Origin: Escherichia phage Mt1B1_P10
Length of the DNA: 45,359 nucleotides
Sequence record: MT496971.1
Reading direction: 5' to 3' (one strand)
The notes under the pieces were generated by a model, which saw only the letters and a list, made by a program, of their open reading frames with translations, ran no database searches and had not been told where the DNA came from. A program made the translations under genes and the position numbers. Positions 268-45,359 of the stretch are shown piece by piece. The first letter of the stretch is position 1; each line of letters opens with the position of its first letter.

Positions 268-617
268 ACACCTCACACACGCCTATATCAAAATTTTGAC
301 TTTGGTTACTTTGTGAGCGACCTCCGTATCTTCTCGTCCCTTATTTGGTCTTCACTAAGAATGTACCTCTTACGACCTAGGACATCACTGAGTATACACA
401 ACAAAGATAACATACCTACACCCCCCCCCCTTTGATGGCACTAAGAGCAAACCTAGGTCTGCCCTTGTGTACACTAAGATATTAACCTGCTTAAGCAGAA
501 GATGCAGAAGGTTTCTTCAAGGCACGACGTTGTACATCCTTGGCAATGGCGTATGCCTGCTTAGGGTCACGTCCTGATTAAATAAGTTCTTCTGCGTTCT
601 GGCGTACAGCAGCTTGC

Positions 618-3053
618 TTAACTGATTTTATTAGCGGCATACATCTCCTCTAATTTATCAAGACGATGGCGAGTGTAGGCAGCCTCTAGGATTAGAACTT
701 CACTATATCTCACACCGTACCTACCTTCTTCGAAGGACACAATTCCATACTTAATGGCATCCAATCCTTCAGCTTCAAAAGCAGCTACAATATCCTGAGC
801 CAAGACACCGAAGTGTATGCTATCAAGATTCCTCTCTGCTTCACTATTCAAACCATACTGTTTAAAACCAACTCTACTCCAAGCCTTTAACACCTTGGTA
901 TTAATACTAGAGATGCCGTACTTGTGGTCAGCATCTGAAGTGGTAACGGGGTCACTGCCTAGGTAGATGGTAGTGAATCGGTTACTAGGTCCACCAGCAG
1001 CAAACTGGTTATCTACAGCAGGCATGATTGGTGCACCTTGGAATAGGTGCTCATTTCCGTTATAAGTGATACGATTAGCATTACTTGAATTAGAGCCGTG
1101 CAAAGTTATCTGTGCACCTGAAGATGACGAAGTCTTTTCTCCACCACAAATAATCAAACGTTGACCAGTTGGGTTGTCCTTTGGAACAGACTTGCCAATA
1201 AAGCCGTACTCACCCTCCATCTGCACTTCAGACCGTATATTGGCACTTGTGCTTGCTTTAAGTGTTAAGTGTCCAACTTTAGCATCCTCTGTAGCAATGT
1301 CATCTGAGAAATACAAAGGTGCAGGGATATTTCGTACTCCATCAGTACCCATGAAAGTGGGTATAGCCTGACCAGGAGTTGCACCATATGTGAACTTACG
1401 AGATACACGATTGTCATTTGCAATCTGCATCTTATAGCAGTATATATCAGTAGGGTGTCCGTGCCCTTTAAATGGGTCTTTATCTTTGTTGTCACCATAA
1501 GTCATTGGGTTGAAATGGTTTTCACCACCAAAGATATAGTAAATGTAGCTATCTTTAACTACCACCGAACCTACGCCTACACTTGAGTTAACAATGTCAC
1601 CCTGATAGATTTGGTCTGTGATGTTAACCCATTCAATATCATCTGCATTCCACTTGTTTACATTCAATCGTGCATAGAAGGTACGAGGATAAGATGCCTT
1701 GTAACGATCATCTGGTGCACCTGCTTCCCATTCATTTTCTGCACGTTCTGAACCAAACATAATAAGGTCATCTCCTACTTTAGCAAAAGGTAAGGTAGTA
1801 TGATGAACATTATGTGGAAATCTTAGTGACTCCCAAGTCTGACCTATATCTCTACTACGATGCAAAGAGCTTCCAAGTCTGTCCCCACGAGTACCACGAG
1901 TGATAAGGTATAACACACCGTCATAGTACTTGATGCATGGCTCTGACGCATCCGGTTCATACTCAGATGGTATCTGACGACGAACATAATTAGATGGGCT
2001 ATTGAAAGCATCAGGGAAGTAGAAAAGCCCAACTTCTCGTGGAGCTACATCGCCTTGATGATAGCCCATAACAAAGCCATTGTTATCAATAGTAGCAAAG
2101 CTATGCACCTCTGTGACACGAGGGATTAGACCAAGATCTGTCTTACGCCATGGAGACTTATGGAAAGAAGTACCCATGTGCCAACTCTTTCCAGCGTTAT
2201 TCAAATCTGAAGTCTGCTGGTTAGGTGTAAGAACCGTGAAGTTGTCCTTATCTATTACTGCTGCTACAGTCATATCACCTGATACGCCTGTTACCGCAGA
2301 ATTAGAGAAGTTAACAAAATCACCCACGAATAGTCCGTGATCTGGTACATGTATTGTTGCATATCGCTGATTTGCAGCTTTAGTGATACCACCAGTAAGA
2401 TGCAGGCTACGAGACATAGGGCGGTCCCACAATGCACAATTGGTTAGTGCGTTCTTGGCTAAAGTACGTGTTTCAATCATGGCAAACAGACGGTTGCGAC
2501 ATACACCCATGCTCATACAATGATAGTTCACTGTAGGGTAATCTGGATGTAGATCAGTTAACCACTCTGGAGTAGACCATGTTTGACCATCGTCACCAGA
2601 TTTAACCCATGATACATGCAGACGACTAACACCATGACGGTCGCTACCCATGTAAGGTGCATATATCACATTCTCATATACAAACGCTTTGTCTTGAGGC
2701 CAAGCATTGTAATAAGGGTTGTCCGTGATTTTATAGAGTTCACCATTGATAAAACCTTTACTCACATAGTAAAGAGGTTGACCTGCTAAACGTTCCCATA
2801 CGAAGCGGGTGTTATAGAATCGCTCCATATCAGGTAAAGATGATACTTTGTAAGTAGCACCAGCACCGTCAATTCTCTTACCTGAAGCCATCGCTGCATT
2901 TACTGCATCTTGGTCGTTTGTCTTACCATCACCTTTGGCTCCAAAGTCTTTAAGCGATACAACCTCGGTGAGCTTGTCATCCAAGTTACGCCAGATTGCA
3001 CCTGCTATTTTACTCTTGAATTTAACTAATGAAGAACCTAGTCTTTGAATCAT
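618..3053 (-). CDS. Tailspike: endosialidase (endo-N-acetylneuraminidase), 811 aa
   Basis: Two sialidase Asp-boxes (SGDDGQTW, SRDIGQTW); C-terminal region resembling the auto-cleaving intramolecular chaperone domain of endosialidases; N-terminal KDFGAKGDG motif. Start moved to ATG at 3053 (SD AAGGAGG); the track start at 3197 is an upstream extension. Confidence 0.8.
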   Translation of the reverse strand: MIQRLGSSLVKFKSKIAGAIWRNLDDKLTEVVSLKDFGAKGDGKTNDQDAVNAAMASGKRIDGAGATYKVSSLPDMERFYNTRFVWERLAGQPLYYVSKGFINGELYKITDNPYYNAWPQDKAFVYENVIYAPYMGSDRHGVSRLHVSWVKSGDDGQTWSTPEWLTDLHPDYPTVNYHCMSMGVCRNRLFAMIETRTLAKNALTNCALWDRPMSRSLHLTGGITKAANQRYATIHVPDHGLFVGDFVNFSNSAVTGVSGDMTVAAVIDKDNFTVLTPNQQTSDLNNAGKSWHMGTSFHKSPWRKTDLGLIPRVTEVHSFATIDNNGFVMGYHQGDVAPREVGLFYFPDAFNSPSNYVRRQIPSEYEPDASEPCIKYYDGVLYLITRGTRGDRLGSSLHRSRDIGQTWESLRFPHNVHHTTLPFAKVGDDLIMFGSERAENEWEAGAPDDRYKASYPRTFYARLNVNKWNADDIEWVNITDQIYQGDIVNSSVGVGSVVVKDSYIYYIFGGENHFNPMTYGDNKDKDPFKGHGHPTDIYCYKMQIANDNRVSRKFTYGATPGQAIPTFMGTDGVRNIPAPLYFSDDIATEDAKVGHLTLKASTSANIRSEVQMEGEYGFIGKSVPKDNPTGQRLIICGGEKTSSSSGAQITLHGSNSSNANRITYNGNEHLFQGAPIMPAVDNQFAAGGPSNRFTTIYLGSDPVTTSDADHKYGISSINTKVLKAWSRVGFKQYGLNSEAERNLDSIHFGVLAQDIVAAFEAEGLDAIKYGIVSFEEGRYGVRYSEVLILEAAYTRHRLDKLEEMYAANKIS

Positions 3054-3104
3054 GTAACCTCCTTTTTCTGAAAGGCTACCATCATGATAACCTTTAAGAA
3101 AAGT

Positions 3105-3132
3105 TGCGCGAAAAGCAGTGCTTACGCACTGC
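3105..3132 (-). terminator. Terminator-like hairpin between the two tailspike genes
   Basis: Minus-strand RNA GCAGUGC-GUAA-GCACUGC (7-bp stem, 4-nt loop) followed by UUUUCGCGCAACUUUUCUU, immediately after the upstream tailspike stop and before the endosialidase SD. Confidence 0.45.
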
Positions 3133-3138
3133 CTGTGA

Positions 3139-4578
3139 TTACCTACGAATTGCCTGTACGTGCAATATTCCGTTAAGTGTAACACTACTACCTGCACTTA
3201 GGTTTTTAATGTAAACATTACAACTATTATCACCTTGTGGCTTCAGAATAATAGCACATGATTGAACATCGAAAGTAGAACCATATGTAAGAACATCACC
3301 TTTATTTGGTTTATAGTCACCAACTAATTGTATAGTTCCTGCATTTAAATCTGCATTAGGTTCTAATGTTGTGTTTACAACTAGTGTCCCTTTAGCTACA
3401 ACACCATTATTACTGCACCAACCTACAGTAAGTGATGGGTTAAATACGGTATTGTCATATTCAATGAGACTATCTCCAACAGCAGCCATAGATGCACCAC
3501 CCTTAGCACCGACCCATGCCTTAAGTGCTGTAGTTCCTAGCTTAATTCTAGACTCACCAGAGGCCATAATTGGGTAGGTGAAGATACTAGTAGATTTAAG
3601 GTTCTCACCGAAGAAGATTCCATCTACATTGACCCTAGAGCTGTCGTGCGCTCTAAGAAAGTATGCTTCTTCACTTCCAGATGCTGGATCAACAACGACA
3701 TTATGCGAGTGTAAGGCATAACCGTTGATTGTTACTGTAGAATCTCCATGAATAAATATAGAAGCATTACCGCTATGATGGATCTCACAATTCTCACTAT
3801 ACATGCCATTTATCACAAGACCTTTGCAGTTTGTAATATCAAATGCCTGTAAACCTTGGATATCATTACATCCATCCATGGCGCAGTTATTCATTGTCAT
3901 ATTATAAACATTAGCCAGTCTATATGCTTGATAGCAATTAAGCGCATAGCATGTATCCATAAGGACTGTAGTTCCAGTGAACTTACGGAACCCCTCCCAG
4001 CAATTGATAGCAACCACATTGCGCATTGAGTATTGGAATGCTCCTGTTTCATCATGCAAACCAAAGTATGCACCACGGACAATGATGTTCTCCATGATAA
4101 ATTGAGAAGGCCATGCTTGTTGGTCGGCATCACCTAGATCTATGCCTTTTCTGCCTGCATAGTTATCTGGTTTGTTCTCTCCATAATCTATGAAGAACCC
4201 ACCTAAATAACCACCCATAGAGTAACCTGCGCTTTCATCATATTTCCATGCAGGCTCATTGTGTGAAGTTGCAAGGATTGTACCAAGACTAGGGACAGGT
4301 GCTATGCCGCCACCTTTTATAACCTGATTCTTAAAATACAAAGTCTCACTAATTATATAAATACCTACAGGGATATACACGTTCTTACCAGAAGCAAGTG
4401 CAGCTTTGAATGCAGCAGTATCATCGGCAGAGCCATCACCCTTAGCACCAAAATCTTTAACACTAACAAAGTAGTTATCAGCGTGTAAGGTGTTATCCCA
4501 TGCTTGTTTTAGATAATCTGACAGCAATCCACCTTCATGTATAATACCAGTTGTGACAGGTTTGGTAATTTTAGCCAT
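3139..4578 (-). CDS. Second tailspike / putative capsule depolymerase (pectate-lyase-like beta-helix), 479 aa
   Basis: N-terminal VSVKDFGAKGDGSADDTAAFKAALASGKNVYIPVGIY typical of pectate-lyase-fold depolymerases; Gly/Asn/Ser-rich beta-helix-like repeats. Start moved to ATG at 4578 (SD AGGAGG). Confidence 0.75.
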   Translation of the reverse strand: MAKITKPVTTGIIHEGGLLSDYLKQAWDNTLHADNYFVSVKDFGAKGDGSADDTAAFKAALASGKNVYIPVGIYIISETLYFKNQVIKGGGIAPVPSLGTILATSHNEPAWKYDESAGYSMGGYLGGFFIDYGENKPDNYAGRKGIDLGDADQQAWPSQFIMENIIVRGAYFGLHDETGAFQYSMRNVVAINCWEGFRKFTGTTVLMDTCYALNCYQAYRLANVYNMTMNNCAMDGCNDIQGLQAFDITNCKGLVINGMYSENCEIHHSGNASIFIHGDSTVTINGYALHSHNVVVDPASGSEEAYFLRAHDSSRVNVDGIFFGENLKSTSIFTYPIMASGESRIKLGTTALKAWVGAKGGASMAAVGDSLIEYDNTVFNPSLTVGWCSNNGVVAKGTLVVNTTLEPNADLNAGTIQLVGDYKPNKGDVLTYGSTFDVQSCAIILKPQGDNSCNVYIKNLSAGSSVTLNGILHVQAIRR

Positions 4579-4662
4579 TAGACCTCCTATTACTTCCCAA
4601 CCCTCCCTATGAAGATTGGCTAGTAATAGGCCGCTCAAAAGAACGGCACTATCTTATCTCTT

Positions 4663-4680
4663 CTATAGTGTCCAGTAAAT
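4663..4680 (-). promoter_or_regulatory. Phage RNAP promoter (SP6-type)
   Basis: Minus-strand ATTTACTGGACACTATAGAAG upstream of the 479-aa tailspike gene. Confidence 0.75.
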
Positions 4681-4709
4681 CGTAAGACACTGATACATAA
4701 AACTATGTA

Positions 4710-4907
4710 TTAATTATACCCGCGTTCTAGCGAAAGAATATACAAACCTAATTTTGTAGCGTCATGCTTACTAAAGCAGACCTTATCGTCCACCTCGTAA
4801 ACTGCCGTCAGCGTCGGCCCCAGAGGTTTCACCATTGCTTTCTCTGGTAACGCCTGCTGACACCCGGAAGTGGTCAGCGAACCAATCAGCAGGATTGTCG
4901 CTAGCAT
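4710..4907 (-). CDS. Candidate o-spanin (Rz1-like lipoprotein), 65 aa
   Basis: MLATILLIGSLTTSGCQQ... signal-like N-terminus with a Cys in lipobox-like context; starts inside the upstream overlapping ORF in another frame and extends beyond it (overlapped spanin architecture). Weak SD. Confidence 0.4.
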   Translation of the reverse strand: MLATILLIGSLTTSGCQQALPEKAMVKPLGPTLTAVYEVDDKVCFSKHDATKLGLYILSLERGYN

Positions 4908-5254: not shown

Positions 5255-5599
5255 TTACCATCGTGCACATCCATCTCTTACATCAATGTGGGTGAAATTA
5301 GGATAAGACCCAATGCCATATTTATTGGGGTAGCGTGCTGTAAGATAAGACCATACACGGTAAGGTGTAATGCCTTGTACCTTAATGTCAGCAGCCTTAC
5401 CAGTAAGATGCATGGAGTTCTTAGCTCCACCTACGTTGGCATTGTGCTTAGCACAGCGATGACCAGAGGTAATAACCACAGGGGCACCGAAATACTCACG
5501 CACATCTGTGACCACCTGTAGTAGCTCAGCATCAACTGTGGATGTACCGCACCCACAACGGCAAGCAAACTCTTTACGCTTGAAGTGTCTATTAAGCAT
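5255..5599 (-). CDS. Endolysin, peptidase M15-like zinc peptidase, 114 aa
   Basis: Motifs KEFACRCGCG, ITSGHRC...HNANVGGAKNSMHLTGKAADI resemble the M15 (D-Ala-D-Ala carboxypeptidase-like) fold. Start taken at the ATG with a GAGG SD (5599); the first ATG at 5611 is also possible. Confidence 0.8.
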   Translation of the reverse strand: MLNRHFKRKEFACRCGCGTSTVDAELLQVVTDVREYFGAPVVITSGHRCAKHNANVGGAKNSMHLTGKAADIKVQGITPYRVWSYLTARYPNKYGIGSYPNFTHIDVRDGCARW

Positions 5600-5620
5600 C
5601 ACCGACCTCATCTGTTACAA

Positions 5621-5920: not shown

Positions 5921-6199
5921 TTAAGCTGGGGTAATAGTTGTGACCGCTAATAACGTGGTCAGCCAATTGGAATCTTCTTTGCCATCAACTGCGATAGCAA
6001 TAACCAGTGTATCATGTGTATCAAGACACACCATGGCTCCTTTCTGCTTACCTGATTTGGTGGCATCATTAATAACATCACCTTTCTTCTCAACAGTGTC
6101 CTCGTAAACTACAGGAAGCATCAGGGCTTCACTCACAGGTTGTATCTGCTTACGAGCAGACTTACCGGTAAGGGGTTGTGTACTATAACTATTAGACAT
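5921..6199 (-). CDS. Hypothetical late protein, 92 aa; paralog of 5621-5908
   Basis: Start moved to ATG at 6199 (SD AGGAGA); the track start at 6259 is an upstream extension. Confidence 0.6.
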   Translation of the reverse strand: MSNSYSTQPLTGKSARKQIQPVSEALMLPVVYEDTVEKKGDVINDATKSGKQKGAMVCLDTHDTLVIAIAVDGKEDSNWLTTLLAVTTITPA

Positions 6200-6337
6200 T
6201 CTCTCTCCTATTGTGTAAGTATAGTAAGGAAGTAAGGAATAGGGTGTACAGGAGTACACCCATACTAAGGCATACCTATATAACCTAGGTTAACCTATAT
6301 TATCCTTGTTATTTCTCTTATTATCTGGGCCTTCCTT

Positions 6338-6355
6338 CTATAGTGTCCAGTAATT
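6338..6355 (-). promoter_or_regulatory. Phage RNAP promoter
   Basis: Minus-strand AATTACTGGACACTATAGAAGG overlapping the large terminase stop; upstream of the paralog pair and lysis genes. Confidence 0.7.
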
Positions 6356-8252
6356 AATAAGTCCTTGAAATCCTTGCAGAAAGTGTATTTCGATTTGCCG
6401 ATTTACTCCTGTAATTCTGACCGTACACTCTTTGCTGCATAGCCACGGAAGTGTTGGTTACTCTTCGCTCAGTGCCATAATCTCCATAGAGCATCGCCCT
6501 ACGGAGGTGAGGTGTGTTCATAGCATGGATGTAATCGCGCATCTCCTGCGCTCTGAGGCGATTAATCCGTGTAACCTCATCATAGTCTATCTGAGAAGTT
6601 AATTGCCGTATAGCGCCATACAGAGCGTCTAAGCGGTCATCGTGCCGGAGGCTGTTCTTCTCAATCGTGATGTTCGACATTTGATTGAAAAGGCTGTAGG
6701 ACATGCGTAGCTCAAGCGGATAGTTCTGTACCGAATCAAAGTCCGATTTCACCATCTCTGCGTTAAAGATGAGCCTGTGGGCCGCCATGAGTGGCTCTAG
6801 CGTCTCAATGATACGCAACTCTTTCTGTCCGGTGGCGTAATCCTCCTCCAGAGTCACAGGCCATTCTCGTTCAAAGTAAGGCTTAATTACCGCCTCAAAC
6901 GCGCCATGACCAAAGTTCTTTTCAATGAATACCTCTTTAACACCAGCCTGCTTTGCGGCCTGCACAATGCGATTCAGGGACGATTCGCGGTATCCGCCTG
7001 GCACGCCGAAGCACTGATACACGTAAATGAATGTGCCGTGCAGGAAGACAATCGCTACACCCGTTTCATCTCCATTCTTACCGCCGCCCGCTGGGTCGAT
7101 ATACATAATCTTGCGGGTAACAGCACCCCATTCATATGGGCGAGCCACAGGTCGATACATGAAGTCTGTAGGTTTATTGCCATACTTCGGTGCATCTCCA
7201 ATGATGTTGATGGAGTCGTTGCTCCACGTAGGCATCACAGGGACTTCCTCAGTACCGAATGAAGTGAAGATGAGATTGTTTAGACGAAGTGGGTATCTGT
7301 CAGCATCCATCATGCGAGTGTTAAGCATGAACTGAAGCTGGAACTTAGCCGCACCCTGAGAGATTTCCTTCTCAATCAGCACTTCATCGTCGTACATTTC
7401 AGGTGCGCAAGGTGCACCACTGTTACCGTCCAACCCATAACCAGAGCGAAGTGCGGGGTTGTCCTTCATATCCTGCACAATCATAGGTGCAAGGAAGTCA
7501 CCATAGCATTGCTCCTGCTCCACTGAAGGATAACGTGCAGTCCAGATACGAACAGAGTAACCACGAGCAGGTAAGTTATTGTAGATAGAGTTTACGTTCT
7601 GAGGTGTCCCAAGGTAGATGATGTCACCAAATTGGTTAATAGATTCAAATTCCTTGGTCAACTCCTCAAGCAATGCACGGCCTGCTGCTGTACGAGCATT
7701 CTGCATCGATTCAACGTCATCCGCTAGAATAATATCAGCACGAGCACCCTGCATACCTGCTTCGATTGAGTAACAGGATACAGAGGGGGACTTATCGCTA
7801 CCACGTAGGGTGTAATGAATCTCAAATGCTTTAACGGATGCACGGTCCCCTGCGTAGATATCCGGCAGCATAAACTCAAGGAAGTCTAGGCCACGGAAGA
7901 TTTTCACCACCCAACCAGCGATTTCCTCTGCTCGCTTAGCGTTTTGGGATACAACCATGATACGCTTATGCGGTTCGTGGATAATACGAAATACCGTATA
8001 GATTGCTGATAGTGTTGTCTTAGCGATACCACGAGGCGCTTCGATGAGGCGATACTTATGCCCGTAGAATAGGAACTTCAAGATATCAGCCTGCATACGA
8101 ATCAGATGAGGGTTGCCTGCAATCAAGTTATGGATAACTGTATCTGCAAAGAGAAGCAAACCTTCCGCTGTATATTTAAAAGTGTCTTGTAGTTCTTTAA
8201 GGTTTTCCCACCGCTTTAATGCCTCTGCCTGTGATTCTCTAGCCTTTGCCAT
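6354..8252 (-). CDS. Terminase large subunit (T7 gp19-like), 632 aa
   Basis: Walker-A-like RGIAKTT, LQFMLN motif and overall similarity to T7 gp19 as recalled. Start moved to ATG at 8252 (SD AAGGAG), which overlaps the HNH stop. Confidence 0.9.
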   Translation of the reverse strand: MAKARESQAEALKRWENLKELQDTFKYTAEGLLLFADTVIHNLIAGNPHLIRMQADILKFLFYGHKYRLIEAPRGIAKTTLSAIYTVFRIIHEPHKRIMVVSQNAKRAEEIAGWVVKIFRGLDFLEFMLPDIYAGDRASVKAFEIHYTLRGSDKSPSVSCYSIEAGMQGARADIILADDVESMQNARTAAGRALLEELTKEFESINQFGDIIYLGTPQNVNSIYNNLPARGYSVRIWTARYPSVEQEQCYGDFLAPMIVQDMKDNPALRSGYGLDGNSGAPCAPEMYDDEVLIEKEISQGAAKFQLQFMLNTRMMDADRYPLRLNNLIFTSFGTEEVPVMPTWSNDSINIIGDAPKYGNKPTDFMYRPVARPYEWGAVTRKIMYIDPAGGGKNGDETGVAIVFLHGTFIYVYQCFGVPGGYRESSLNRIVQAAKQAGVKEVFIEKNFGHGAFEAVIKPYFEREWPVTLEEDYATGQKELRIIETLEPLMAAHRLIFNAEMVKSDFDSVQNYPLELRMSYSLFNQMSNITIEKNSLRHDDRLDALYGAIRQLTSQIDYDEVTRINRLRAQEMRDYIHAMNTPHLRRAMLYGDYGTERRVTNTSVAMQQRVYGQNYRSKSANRNTLSARISRTY

Positions 8253-9170: not shown

Positions 9171-10133
9171 TTATGCTGTGATAATCTTAGCAGTCATCCG
9201 GCACTCTGGTACTCTTTCTGAGAAAGTAACAATGACACCGTCTACCTGATAAGCAAGTTTAGGTTGTAATAATCCATCAAGGTAGACCTCAATGTACTTA
9301 AATGCAGAGCCAATCTGTACTACTTGTTGGCCTTCTACTAAGTCAAAGTTCAACTCTAACTGAATATTAGGTTCAGATGTAGCCACACGACTGCCAATCA
9401 GCACATACACCTCTGTGCCAGCCACAAGTGGCTCTGCGAAAGTGATAGTGTTGCTGCTTATAGAGTATGCGCCTACGATTTGGTGTTGCAAGACCCCATT
9501 AAGGAAAACTAGTGCATCTTGAAATTCATAAGGAGGTTTTACGGAAACCTCACCTCCTTGGGCGATCGTGTACCAAGGGATAGTTCTGTGCGCAATACCA
9601 GAAGTCATACCTGCTTTAAGGCCAGCAATCTCAATATCCTGTTTGGTGTTCCAATCTGTATGCTTCTTGTCAATGGCATCAAGCTGCCCTTTATTTACTG
9701 CATCTCCCGGATTTGTGCCATCAGCCAAATCAGTAATCTTATTGCCGCCCCAGCTTACATTCTGTTTAATGAAGTACCCTTCTGGATAAAACCCGTCAAG
9801 TAACTCCTGTGTAATCTCCAGTATATGAATGAAAGAACCATTTAAAGACTTCATATCCAAGGTAACACCACGGTCAAACTCAGCGTATGGATATTCCTTT
9901 TGTACTTCCCTTCGAATACGGAACTTCAAACCTGCAACTGGTGCTACATCAAAAGTAATCTGGTGCGTGCCAGTTAGTTGCCAGCCAGATGTAACCTCAA
10001 TCCAAGTGTTACCTTGAAGAGATTCCACTATCACATCTGAGGCACGAAGATAACCTTTATCCCTACCAGCAAAGCTAAAGGGATAGGTTACTTGCGTACC
10101 GTTGGCTATATGTTCTGTGAAAGTATAACTCAT
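9171..10133 (-). CDS. Tail fiber-like adaptor (T7 gp17 N-terminal-domain-like), 320 aa
   Basis: Position after the internal virion proteins and before the holin; too short to be a fiber itself; likely docks the two tailspikes. Start is ATG at 10133, overlapping the upstream stop (ATGA). Confidence 0.65.
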   Translation of the reverse strand: MSYTFTEHIANGTQVTYPFSFAGRDKGYLRASDVIVESLQGNTWIEVTSGWQLTGTHQITFDVAPVAGLKFRIRREVQKEYPYAEFDRGVTLDMKSLNGSFIHILEITQELLDGFYPEGYFIKQNVSWGGNKITDLADGTNPGDAVNKGQLDAIDKKHTDWNTKQDIEIAGLKAGMTSGIAHRTIPWYTIAQGGEVSVKPPYEFQDALVFLNGVLQHQIVGAYSISSNTITFAEPLVAGTEVYVLIGSRVATSEPNIQLELNFDLVEGQQVVQIGSAFKYIEVYLDGLLQPKLAYQVDGVIVTFSERVPECRMTAKIITA

Positions 10134-45092: not shown

Positions 45093-45359
45093 TAGCCCAC
45101 CCACGCCCACCCTGTCAAACGCTCAGGAATGGCCCTAAAACGGCCTGTGTAAGCCCTAAGCGGTTGCACTAAGGCAATCACCTTGTCCAATACTAAGGCG
45201 TGCCCTAGCGCTTCCTAGGCGTTCTCCTTGTGCAGCCACTAAGAGCAGACCTCGGCAAACCCTAGGCCACCCGTCGAAGACGTACCAGCCCAGCCCAATT
45301 CCCAAGCCAACCGCAGCGCGGCCCCCATATGGGGAAAATCCGGCGAGGGCGAGGGCGAG
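45093..45359. repeat. Direct terminal repeat, copy at window end (genome left end)
   Basis: Identical to bases 1-267. Confidence 0.9.

Follow-up and report, generated by a model that had tools for sequence, protein, structure and literature searches.

A K1-5-type receptor-recognition cassette in Escherichia phage Mt1B1_P10 with a predicted K1 endosialidase and a second, beta-helix tailspike

Introduction

Phages that recognize the K1 capsule, and the endosialidases that they carry, are candidates for therapy against strains that cause neonatal meningitis, sepsis and avian colibacillosis, and resistance to K1 phages usually arises through loss of the capsule. Phage K1-5 has a dual tailspike system made up of gp37, gp46 and gp47 (Scholl 2001; Leiman 2007). 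A sequence-only reading of the genome of Escherichia phage Mt1B1_P10 (MT496971.1; the stretch of 45,359 nucleotides that was analysed is referred to here as the window) proposed that it encodes two tailspikes, a K1 endosialidase and a 479-aa beta-helix protein that could provide a second capsule specificity. What the second spike recognizes, and where it came from, are the questions that this locus raises. We are fairly confident that the locus, in a podophage of the K1E/K1-5 type, is a cassette that serves receptor recognition and contains a recruited second spike, the target of which may be an O2/O1-type O-antigen.

Results

The two tailspikes and their adapter

The window is a complete genome of a Vectrevirus (the K1E/K1-5 group) in which every gene lies on the minus strand. 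Counted from ATG starts with AGGAGG Shine-Dalgarno sites upstream, its two tailspike genes encode proteins of 811 aa (618..3053, minus strand) and 479 aa (3139..4578, minus strand). Endosialidase Pfam domains in the former and a beta-helix family match in the latter bear out the proposal of two tailspikes, and all of the features described in the sequence-only reading lie at, or a few bases from, the positions that it gave. When records were ranked by the backbone region (window positions 5000-29000), those at the top were ULINTec6/7 (95%) and not T145_P2/AL505_P3, the phages whose host ranges are considered below.

The 811-aa protein, a gp47 homologue, is 97.8% identical to gp47 of K1E and of K1-5 and contains all five endosialidase Pfam domains, namely End_N_terminal (residues 39-102), End_beta_propel (103-545, E = 5e-223), End_beta_barrel (214-296), End_tail_spike (546-705) and the Peptidase_S74 chaperone (706-763), the profiles matched for propeller, barrel and stalk being PF12217 (E = 5e-223), PF12195 and PF12219. 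This is the make-up of a phage endosialidase (GH58) tailspike, in which a nested barrel and a stalk accompany a six-bladed catalytic propeller. Two sialidase Asp-boxes had been noted, and both are present (SGDDGQTW at residue 152 and SRDIGQTW at residue 400). The C-terminal chaperone-like domain is likewise there: the Peptidase_S74 match begins exactly at residue 706, in ...DPVTT/SDADHK (the chaperone part being nt 621-938), and the domain also matches structure 3GW6. Over its catalytic part the protein hardly differs from crystallized endoNF (3GVL/1V0E). The active-site residues of endoNF, reported as E581, R596 and R647 (Stummeyer 2005), correspond at an offset of 210 to E371, R386 and R437, within a stretch identical to 3GVL/1V0E. 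The reading of this protein as a K1 endosialidase thus agrees with its identity to K1E/K1-5 gp47 and its domain content. From that identity to the characterized K1E and K1-5 enzymes, together with the lysis of K1 hosts by near-identical phages, we infer that it cleaves alpha-2,8-polysialic acid. The enzyme would bind and cut this polymer in the K1 capsule, and its C-terminal chaperone domain would fold the trimer and then be cut off at Ser706.

A protein encoded at 9171..10133 (minus strand) is 98% identical to the K1-5 adapter gp37, matches the Phage_T7_tail N-terminal domain and resembles a T7 gp17-like adapter that has no receptor-binding domain of its own. The docking peptides of K1-5, which PMC6872550 gives with a citation of Leiman 2007, are MAKLTKP for the first slot and MIQRLGSSLVK for the second. 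The 479-aa spike begins with MAKITKP (residues 1-7), which is the same heptapeptide with one conservative L-to-I change, and the N-terminus of the endosialidase matches the undecapeptide exactly. By homology to K1-5, the gp37 adapter would carry both spikes as trimers via these short N-terminal peptides, with MAKITKP docking the protein in the gp46 slot and MIQRLGSSLVK docking the endosialidase, so that one spike of each kind would sit at every one of the six positions on the tail. Judged from its sequence, the layout is of the K1-5 type, with a K1 capsule endosialidase and an exchanged beta-helix tailspike in the slot of the K5 lyase.

Transcription of the cassette

Upstream of the two tailspike genes lies a perfect consensus copy of an SP6/K1E-type phage-RNA-polymerase promoter, ATTTACTGGACACTATAGAAGAG (4658..4680, minus strand), which is the same in K1-5 and K1E; the consensus is found eight times on the minus strand of the window, against zero expected by chance. 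The upstream flank of the cassette is a 5' untranslated leader with the Shine-Dalgarno AGGAGG (4579..4657, minus strand), which is nearly invariant in the window, K1-5 and K1E. The downstream flank is the 85-nt intergenic region (3054..3138, minus strand), which an alignment shows to be invariant in K1-5 and K1E and which holds the endosialidase Shine-Dalgarno site and two symmetric elements: a hairpin at 3113-3134, with a 9-bp stem and a GUAA loop followed by UUUU, and a second hairpin at about 3064-3102. RNA folding of the 92-nt hairpin region gave a minimum free energy of -33.5 kcal/mol (z = -6.1).

The sequence-only reading had placed a terminator-like hairpin at 3105-3132 and had credited the 479-aa gene with a promoter of its own. 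A hairpin does lie between the genes, slightly shifted from that position, but the promoter is not that of the 479-aa gene alone. The promoter at 4658-4680 serves both tailspike genes and is the sole phage promoter upstream of either, a consensus scan having found no phage promoter between the two. Because the endosialidase gene has no other promoter upstream of it, the hairpin must be read through and cannot be an efficient terminator. A simple scan for terminators passed over it, since only four T follow the stem. The intergenic hairpins probably act in RNA processing, RNA stability or attenuation and not as a full terminator. Judged from the sequence, the single late promoter transcribes both genes as a unit, and the conserved hairpin region would be an RNA element that transcription passes.

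Fold and origin of the second tailspike

The 479-aa protein had been described as having a pectate-lyase fold, and it matches Pect-lyase_RHGA_epim (PF12708) over residues 37-90 with 48.6 bits, where the cut-off is 27; its match to Beta_helix (19.6 bits) falls under the 25.9 cut-off of that family. An AF2 model (pLDDT 84) shows a confident and complete fold in which a flexible linker (residues 1-35) leads into a right-handed beta-helix, from residue 37 to about residue 380, and then a C-terminal beta-sandwich. By this fold of its body, and by a PF12708 signature above the gathering score, the protein belongs with the right-handed beta-helix tailspikes. The Foldseek top match of the model, only marginally so, was the Sf6 tailspike, an endorhamnosidase specific for an O-antigen (TM 0.44), in a fold search that separates neither hydrolase from lyase nor one substrate from another. 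D176, D235, E262 and R168 are invariant in an alignment of nine family sequences and are candidate catalytic residues. Homology searches with the protein recovered relatives among Kayfunavirus tail fibres (80% identity) but no characterized close relative. We rejected an identity as K5 lyase (KflA / K1-5 gp46): similarity to that enzyme was not found past the first 74 residues, and a Pfam search matched no C-terminal chaperone domain.

The motif KDFGAKGDG is found near both N-termini, as had been observed (residue 35 in the endosialidase and residue 41 in the 479-aa spike), and the two proteins align by BLASTP with 51% identity over 41 aa (E = 3e-7). It is a generic N-terminal cap motif, however, widespread in PF12708/PF12218-type proteins, and dozens of unrelated proteins, fungal glucanases included, match the query through it alone. 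The sharing is therefore no sign of a recent duplication.

Homology to K1-5 and K1E spans the promoter and the 5' untranslated leader, reaches 21 nt into the 479-aa gene, then stops, and returns 6-11 nt past the stop codon, at the hairpin (in BLASTN it breaks off at 4558/4559 and starts again at 3145/3150). The swapped receptor-binding module that these limits define (3146..4557, minus strand) is unlike its counterparts in K1-5 (K5 lyase) and K1E (a 111-aa gp46), and the breaks fall at the predicted cassette limits, where exchange of host-range modules had been expected. Over residues 40-479 the protein shares 80% identity with the receptor-binding part of the one tail fibre that each of the Kayfunaviruses Vec13, pO2 and UFJF_EcSW4 has. 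On these alignments, the protein is a chimera of a Vectrevirus docking peptide and linker with a Kayfunavirus-type body, and that body (residues 40-479) was recruited by module exchange from the Kayfunavirus receptor-binding-domain family. Comparison with the Kayfunavirus fibres gave pN 0.12, pS 0.73 and dN/dS about 0.05; since synonymous sites are saturated, the exchange is not recent. Members of this domain family occur on attachment modules of four kinds: the docking peptide of the Vectrevirus, the N-terminal domain of a T7-type gp17, a KP34-like MALV peptide and a G7C-type Tail_spike_N domain.

These comparisons bear on whether the 479-aa protein might be a remnant without activity, or might do no more than fill the first docking site on the adapter structurally, in the manner of the 111-aa gp46 of K1E. 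That slot in K1E does hold a short protein with no beta-helix body, and the 479-aa protein has no C-terminal chaperone domain. Nevertheless, a dN/dS of about 0.05 with saturated synonymous divergence argues that it is not a remnant; it corresponds from end to end to the receptor-binding part (aa 241-676) of the fibre that is the only one in Vec13, pO2 and UFJF_EcSW4, its predicted fold is confident and complete, and the proteins of T145_P2 and AL505_P3 match it with 97.9-99.4% identity. We find a remnant or filler, truncated or otherwise inactive, hardly credible. The 479-aa protein is an intact, selectively maintained right-handed beta-helix tailspike that is predicted to degrade a glycan.

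Host range and the target of the second tailspike

The 479-aa proteins of T145_P2 and AL505_P3 are 97.9% and 99.4% identical to that of the window, and the isolation hosts of these phages were O2:H6:K1 and O1:H7:K1, respectively. Most K1 strains are lysed by both phages, irrespective of their O type (Gaborieau et al., bioRxiv 10.1101/2023.11.22.567924). Of the strains with a typing other than K1 or none, T145_P2 lyses 9 of 16 that are O1/O2 and about 6 of the other 330 (Fisher p about 3e-10); the counts for T145_P2 and AL505_P3 were taken by hand from a copy of the published table that lacks 47 phage columns, that of the endosialidase-only phage MT1B1_P3 among them, and they concern phylogenetically non-independent strains with many low scores (1-2). 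Specifically, both of the O2:K5 strains (ECOR-49 and ECOR-50) are lysed, and none of 14 K5 strains of other O types is. The other non-K1 positives are mostly strains with no O-antigen or no predicted O type (BL21, ECOR-13 and E. fergusonii ATCC 35469), and this fits a role in barrier removal. T145_P2 fails on several O1/O2 strains that are not K1, namely ECOR-57, IAI54 and IAI72 (all O2:K7), ECOR-46 (O1:K2), NILS71 and NILS36. We note that NILS71 is an acapsular O2 strain and NILS36 an O1 strain.

If the second spike degraded the capsule of a second K type, in the way that the K5 lyase does in K1-5, another encapsulated group would come within the host range. Yet the lysed non-K1 strains have no K type in common (K5, K7 or no ABC capsule) and do have O2/O1 in common, the 14 K5 strains of other O types and three O2:K7 strains are not lysed, and similarity to the K5 lyase does not extend past the first 74 residues. 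We consider this decidedly unlikely, and the published host range of near-identical phages makes the second capsule specificity originally suggested less likely than recognition of an O2/O1 O-antigen.

Alternatively, the spike may be functional with a target outside both O2/O1 and the K antigens, or one that cannot be read from these data, the O1/O2 enrichment being a by-product of K1 lineages with mistyped or lost capsules, of lysate carry-over or of lysis from without. Several lysed O1/O2 strains scored as having no ABC capsule belong to sequence types with K1 sisters (IAI38, ST79; IAI58, ST59; NILS61/62, ST141) and may be K1 strains missed by typing. Carry-over is suggested by weak AL505_P3 matches that follow strong AL505_P2 ones, and by low scores that neighbouring T145 lysates mirror. 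Moreover, the readable columns of the table hold no endosialidase-only control, and MT1B1_P3, which has the endosialidase and not the 479-aa spike, has a very similar host range according to the authors (Gaborieau et al.). Against a by-product, ECOR-49 and ECOR-50 (T145_P2 scores 2 and 4) are typed K5 and are real K5 strains, because PDP21 phages that lyse other K5 strains lyse both, and T205 (O2:K7) and M863 (O2, Clade I), which are unrelated to the K1 lineages, are still weak positives. We suspect that a by-product is not the explanation, but give it real weight.

A further observation concerns UFJF_EcSW4, which has the 479-aa-type domain in its only receptor-binding protein and was isolated on ATCC 11775. 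We take that strain to be O1:K1:H7; an O-specific spike of UFJF_EcSW4 would therefore have to pass a K1 capsule, which counts against an O-antigen target.

Taken together, the host ranges of near-identical phages, read without an endosialidase-only control, make an O2/O1-type O-antigen the most likely substrate of the 479-aa spike, a view that we hold about as strongly as we doubt it. The antigen would be that of ExPEC/APEC lineages that usually have K1. K1 strains would then be entered via the endosialidase and O2/O1 strains lacking K1 via the second spike, and the non-K1 hosts within reach would include strains with K5, strains with no capsule and mutants that have escaped by losing theirs.

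Discussion

We tentatively propose that two depolymerases, one for the capsule and one for the O-antigen, are combined in this phage against the same lineages (O1/O2:K1 ExPEC and APEC). If so, the second spike adds no unrelated host group; instead, infection would continue on cells that lack the K1 capsule, have switched it off or have lost it by a resistance mutation, so that the most frequent way of escaping K1 phages would be countered from the outset, and the spike may also help the tail to cross the O-antigen layer once the capsule has been stripped. The phage would be a natural, ready-made two-receptor K1 phage whose second spike addresses the O-antigens commonest under K1, and it would supply an enzyme specific for O2/O1 that could be used in typing or therapy. 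The locus is in addition a clean case of one receptor-binding module re-used on four scaffolds, which is useful for host-range engineering.

The design itself is already known from the K1-5/SP6 adapter system, near-identical cassettes are already public, and the locus is an ordinary, expected variant of the K1-5 design. Phage K1-5 is of the same genus and shares the adapter (98% identity), the endosialidase (97.8%), the promoter, leader, intergenic hairpins and docking peptides, and in both phages a full-size beta-helix enzyme fills the gp46 slot. The slot enzyme differs in having 479 rather than 632 aa, in being unrelated past residue 74, with no chaperone domain and no identity as K5 lyase, and in a likely target that would be an O-antigen and not a capsule. 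K1E has the same cassette flanks, the same endosialidase and a backbone 94-95% identical, but its first slot holds a 111-aa protein, giving a single specificity, whereas that of the window holds an intact tailspike. In T145_P2 and AL505_P3 (OZ035747.1 and OZ035802.1) the whole 4.3-kb cassette is 97.6-98.4% identical to that of the window; these records are unannotated, and the authors linked K1 lysis to 'RBP #2', the endosialidase, and did not discuss the first receptor-binding protein (Gaborieau et al.). The gp17 of the Kayfunaviruses Vec13, pO2 and UFJF_EcSW4 shares the same receptor-binding/enzymatic module, its C-terminal 436 residues being 80% identical to residues 40-479; there the module sits on a T7-type gp17 N-terminal domain as the sole receptor-binding protein, and here on a 7-residue docking peptide and linker. 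Finally, gp46 and gp47 of Salmonella phage SP6 follow the same adapter logic and, although SP6 is of another genus and host and both of its spikes target O-antigens, neither being an endosialidase, they provide a precedent for an O-antigen-specific spike in an adapter system of this kind.

A predicted endosialidase tailspike in a K1E/K1-5-like genome

All long open reading frames of the window lie on the minus strand, positions 1-267 are repeated exactly at 45093-45359 as a 267-bp direct terminal repeat, and 24 kb align at 92-95% with genomes from the K1E, K1-5 and ULINTec group of Vectrevirus. Together these features identify the window as a complete linear genome, that of a podophage resembling K1E and K1-5 (Autographiviridae, Molineuxvirinae), and its terminal redundancy is like that of K1E and SP6. 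The two tailspike genes are the last two of the genome, and a gene for a 118-aa Peptidase_M15 (L-alanyl-D-glutamate-type) endolysin (5255-5611, minus strand) lies directly upstream of the spanin and tailspike region. ULINTec6/7 (95%) rank first for the backbone of structural and replication genes (5000-29000), with no T145P2 record among the best 12 matches, and for the tailspike cassette (500-4800) the closest records are of the T145P2 type (97.6-98.4%). These different nearest relatives suggest that the genome is mosaic.

The 811-aa protein (618..3053, minus strand) has a match to each of the five endosialidase Pfam domains and shares 97.8% identity with the K1E and K1-5 enzymes; it is predicted to be a typical GH58 tailspike. 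The two Asp-boxes and the C-terminal chaperone-like domain that the sequence-only reading had attributed to it are there, the boxes at residues 152 and 400 and the domain, by Pfam match, from residue 706. Over the catalytic part its sequence hardly differs from that of crystallised endoNF, and the active-site residues E581, R596 and R647 of endoNF correspond to E371, R386 and R437 (offset 210) inside an identical stretch. The non-coding sequence downstream of the gene carries a run of ten G at about 420-429 (minus strand); runs of this type are liable to sequencing or slippage errors.

The second spike belongs to a small yet mobile family

The 479-aa protein (3139..4578, minus strand), previously described as having a pectate-lyase fold, scores above threshold for PF12708, a family of pectate-lyase-like N-terminal regions, and is a member of the beta-helix tailspike superfamily. 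KDFGAKGDG, reported earlier as shared by the two tailspikes, is indeed present in both. We rejected the motif as evidence of duplication because it is also the sole matching part in dozens of unrelated proteins; beta-helices of this kind commonly carry it as their N-terminal cap.

Searching a large protein database returned seven true relatives of the 479-aa protein among 5.8 billion clusters, none of them characterised, and about 100 further matches that cover the 40-residue N-cap only. A sequence search of solved structures likewise matched only the N-cap motif and yielded no functional assignment, and the best PHROGs family is annotated as being of unknown function. From residue 40 to residue 479 the protein shares 80% identity with residues 241-676 of the sole tail fibre of Kayfunaviruses Vec13, pO2 and UFJF_EcSW4. 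At the nucleotide level the module is 75% identical to that of Vec13, with pS of 0.73 (synonymous sites saturated), pN of 0.12 and dN/dS of about 0.05, values that point to an old module under strong purifying selection and that contradict the possibility, raised beforehand, that the protein is a truncated inactive remnant. We also rejected a K5 lyase as the identity of this spike, because similarity stops at residue 74 and the chaperone domain is missing.

The body of the spike is found on a T7-type gp17 N-terminal domain, a Vectrevirus docking peptide, a KP34-like 'MALV' peptide and a G7C-type Tail_spike_N domain. Two contigs carry versions of it that are 51-53% identical. In L009 (a 44-kb metagenome contig of a KP34-like podophage; 6001-7422) it forms the second receptor-binding protein, with the 'MALV' N-terminus, and in L011 (a 71-kb contig of an N4/G7C-like phage; 6001-7863) it lies behind Tail_spike_N and adjoins a second, 875-aa beta-helix spike.

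Host range of phages with a near-identical cassette

The cassette is already in public genomes, where it is uncharacterised: near-identical copies (97.6-98.4% at the nucleotide level) occur in the public, unannotated records OZ035747.1 and OZ035802.1, which correspond to phages T145_P2 and AL505_P3 of Gaborieau et al. (bioRxiv 10.1101/2023.11.22.567924). These phages were isolated on O2:H6:K1 and O1:H7:K1 hosts, respectively, and the authors linked the endosialidase ('RBP #2') to K1 host range, leaving the other receptor-binding protein undiscussed (10.1101/2023.11.22.567924). The counts that follow were taken by hand from the strain table and part of the interaction matrix (Supplementary Table 3, 10.1101/2023.11.22.567924) and hold for that part. 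T145_P2 lyses 36 of 42 typed-K1 strains of any O type, 9 of 16 O1/O2 strains not typed K1, and about 6 of 330 other strains not typed K1, so that O1/O2 strains are enriched among the lysed non-K1 strains (Fisher p ~3e-10). Lysed O1/O2 strains comprise ECOR-49 and ECOR-50 (O2:K5), IAI38, NILS61, NILS62 and M863 (O2 without an ABC capsule), IAI58 (O1 without an ABC capsule), IAI33 (O1:K7) and T205 (O2:K7); T145_P2 fails to lyse three O2:K7 strains, an O1:K2 strain, NILS71 and NILS36. Among the positives outside O1/O2, three (BL21, ECOR-13 and the E. fergusonii type strain) have no O-antigen or predicted O type. K5 was ruled out as the receptor because T145_P2 scores 0 on each of the 14 K5 strains with another O type.

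The O2 and O1 antigens both have a Rha-Rha-Rha-GlcNAc backbone. The enrichment fits a second spike that removes O2/O1-type O-antigen, and we would give this reading an even chance of being right. On the O1 strain IAI58, AL505_P3 scores 5. Serious caveats apply, however. Four of the lysed O1/O2 strains come from K1 lineages and may be mistyped. The control phage MT1B1_P3, which has an endosialidase only, falls among 47 columns outside the part of the matrix used here, and its host range is described by the authors as very similar (10.1101/2023.11.22.567924). Many lysis scores in the matrix are low; the weak non-K1 scores of AL505_P3 (O81 'HP' strains, ECOR-12, EC6230, NILS43 and VDG427) coincide with strong scores of AL505_P2, and T145_P3 to P5 show low scores mirroring T145_P2 on K1 strains. 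These patterns in the AL505_P2/AL505_P3 and T145_P1-P5 columns resemble what carry-over between lysates or an influence of neighbouring spots would give, and weak scores therefore deserve limited trust. The DNA of the receptor-binding module had no match in 5,426 complete E. coli genomes, in which we sought prophage copies with a readable host serotype, and our literature search on Vec13, pO2, UFJF_EcSW4 and O2-antigen tailspikes found no specificity data. A question of some interest is whether the combination of a K1 depolymerase with a possible O2/O1 spike insures the phage against capsule loss.

Siphophages of the Veterinaerplatzvirus T145P1 group (OZ035767.1, OZ035793.1, OZ035765.1 and OZ035786.1) encode a beta-helix protein with 27% identity to the second spike over residues 63-319 of the latter. 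Their isolation host, like that of T145_P2, is T145 (O2:K1), and in the part of the published matrix used here the strains that they lyse are mainly O2:H6 ST141, among them NILS62, which is acapsular. This protein may be a second representative, though a distant one, of an O2-directed family.

Transcription, exchange and docking of the two spikes

The 23-nt phage-RNA-polymerase promoter consensus ATTTACTGGACACTATAGAAGAG occurs eight times on the minus strand (4658, 6333, 21649, 29985, 31131, 31900, 36583 and 39240), with no copy on the plus strand and none expected by chance. A perfect copy at 4658-4680 bears out the promoter proposed for the 479-aa gene, and the consensus search found none between the two tailspike genes. 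The terminator-like hairpin proposed for the intergenic region is present (3113-3134, with a second hairpin at about 3064-3102), in a region whose computed fold is much more stable than that of shuffled sequence (z = -6.1). It was not called by a simple terminator scan, and the idea of an efficient terminator had to be dropped, since without a promoter between the genes the endosialidase must be transcribed by read-through of the hairpin. More probably the hairpin would act in RNA processing, stability or attenuation.

Conservation with K1-5 and K1E extends through promoter and leader as far as nucleotide 21 of the first gene, and it covers the whole 85-nt intergenic region, starting just past the stop codon. 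These flanks enclose an exchanged segment at 3146-4557, in agreement with the module boundary suggested for host-range swapping. The predicted layout of the cassette is that of phage K1-5, in which gp46 and gp47 dock on the gp37 adapter via a hepta- and an undecapeptide, respectively (Leiman 2007, as summarised in PMC6872550). Here the 479-aa protein begins with the corresponding heptapeptide, MAKITKP, and the endosialidase with the undecapeptide MIQRLGSSLVK, and the product of the adapter gene (9171-10133) is 98% identical to K1-5 gp37.

The central proposal of the sequence-only reading, two tailspikes, was thus right, and every item it listed in support is present. Sequence-level features that define the adapter-based dual tailspike family of K1-5, K1E and SP6 were found wherever we looked for them, and on these features the system belongs to that family. 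Between the conserved flanks K1-5 carries a 632-aa K5 lyase, K1E a 111-aa protein and the present phage the 479-aa spike; O-antigen spikes on this adapter have a precedent in SP6.
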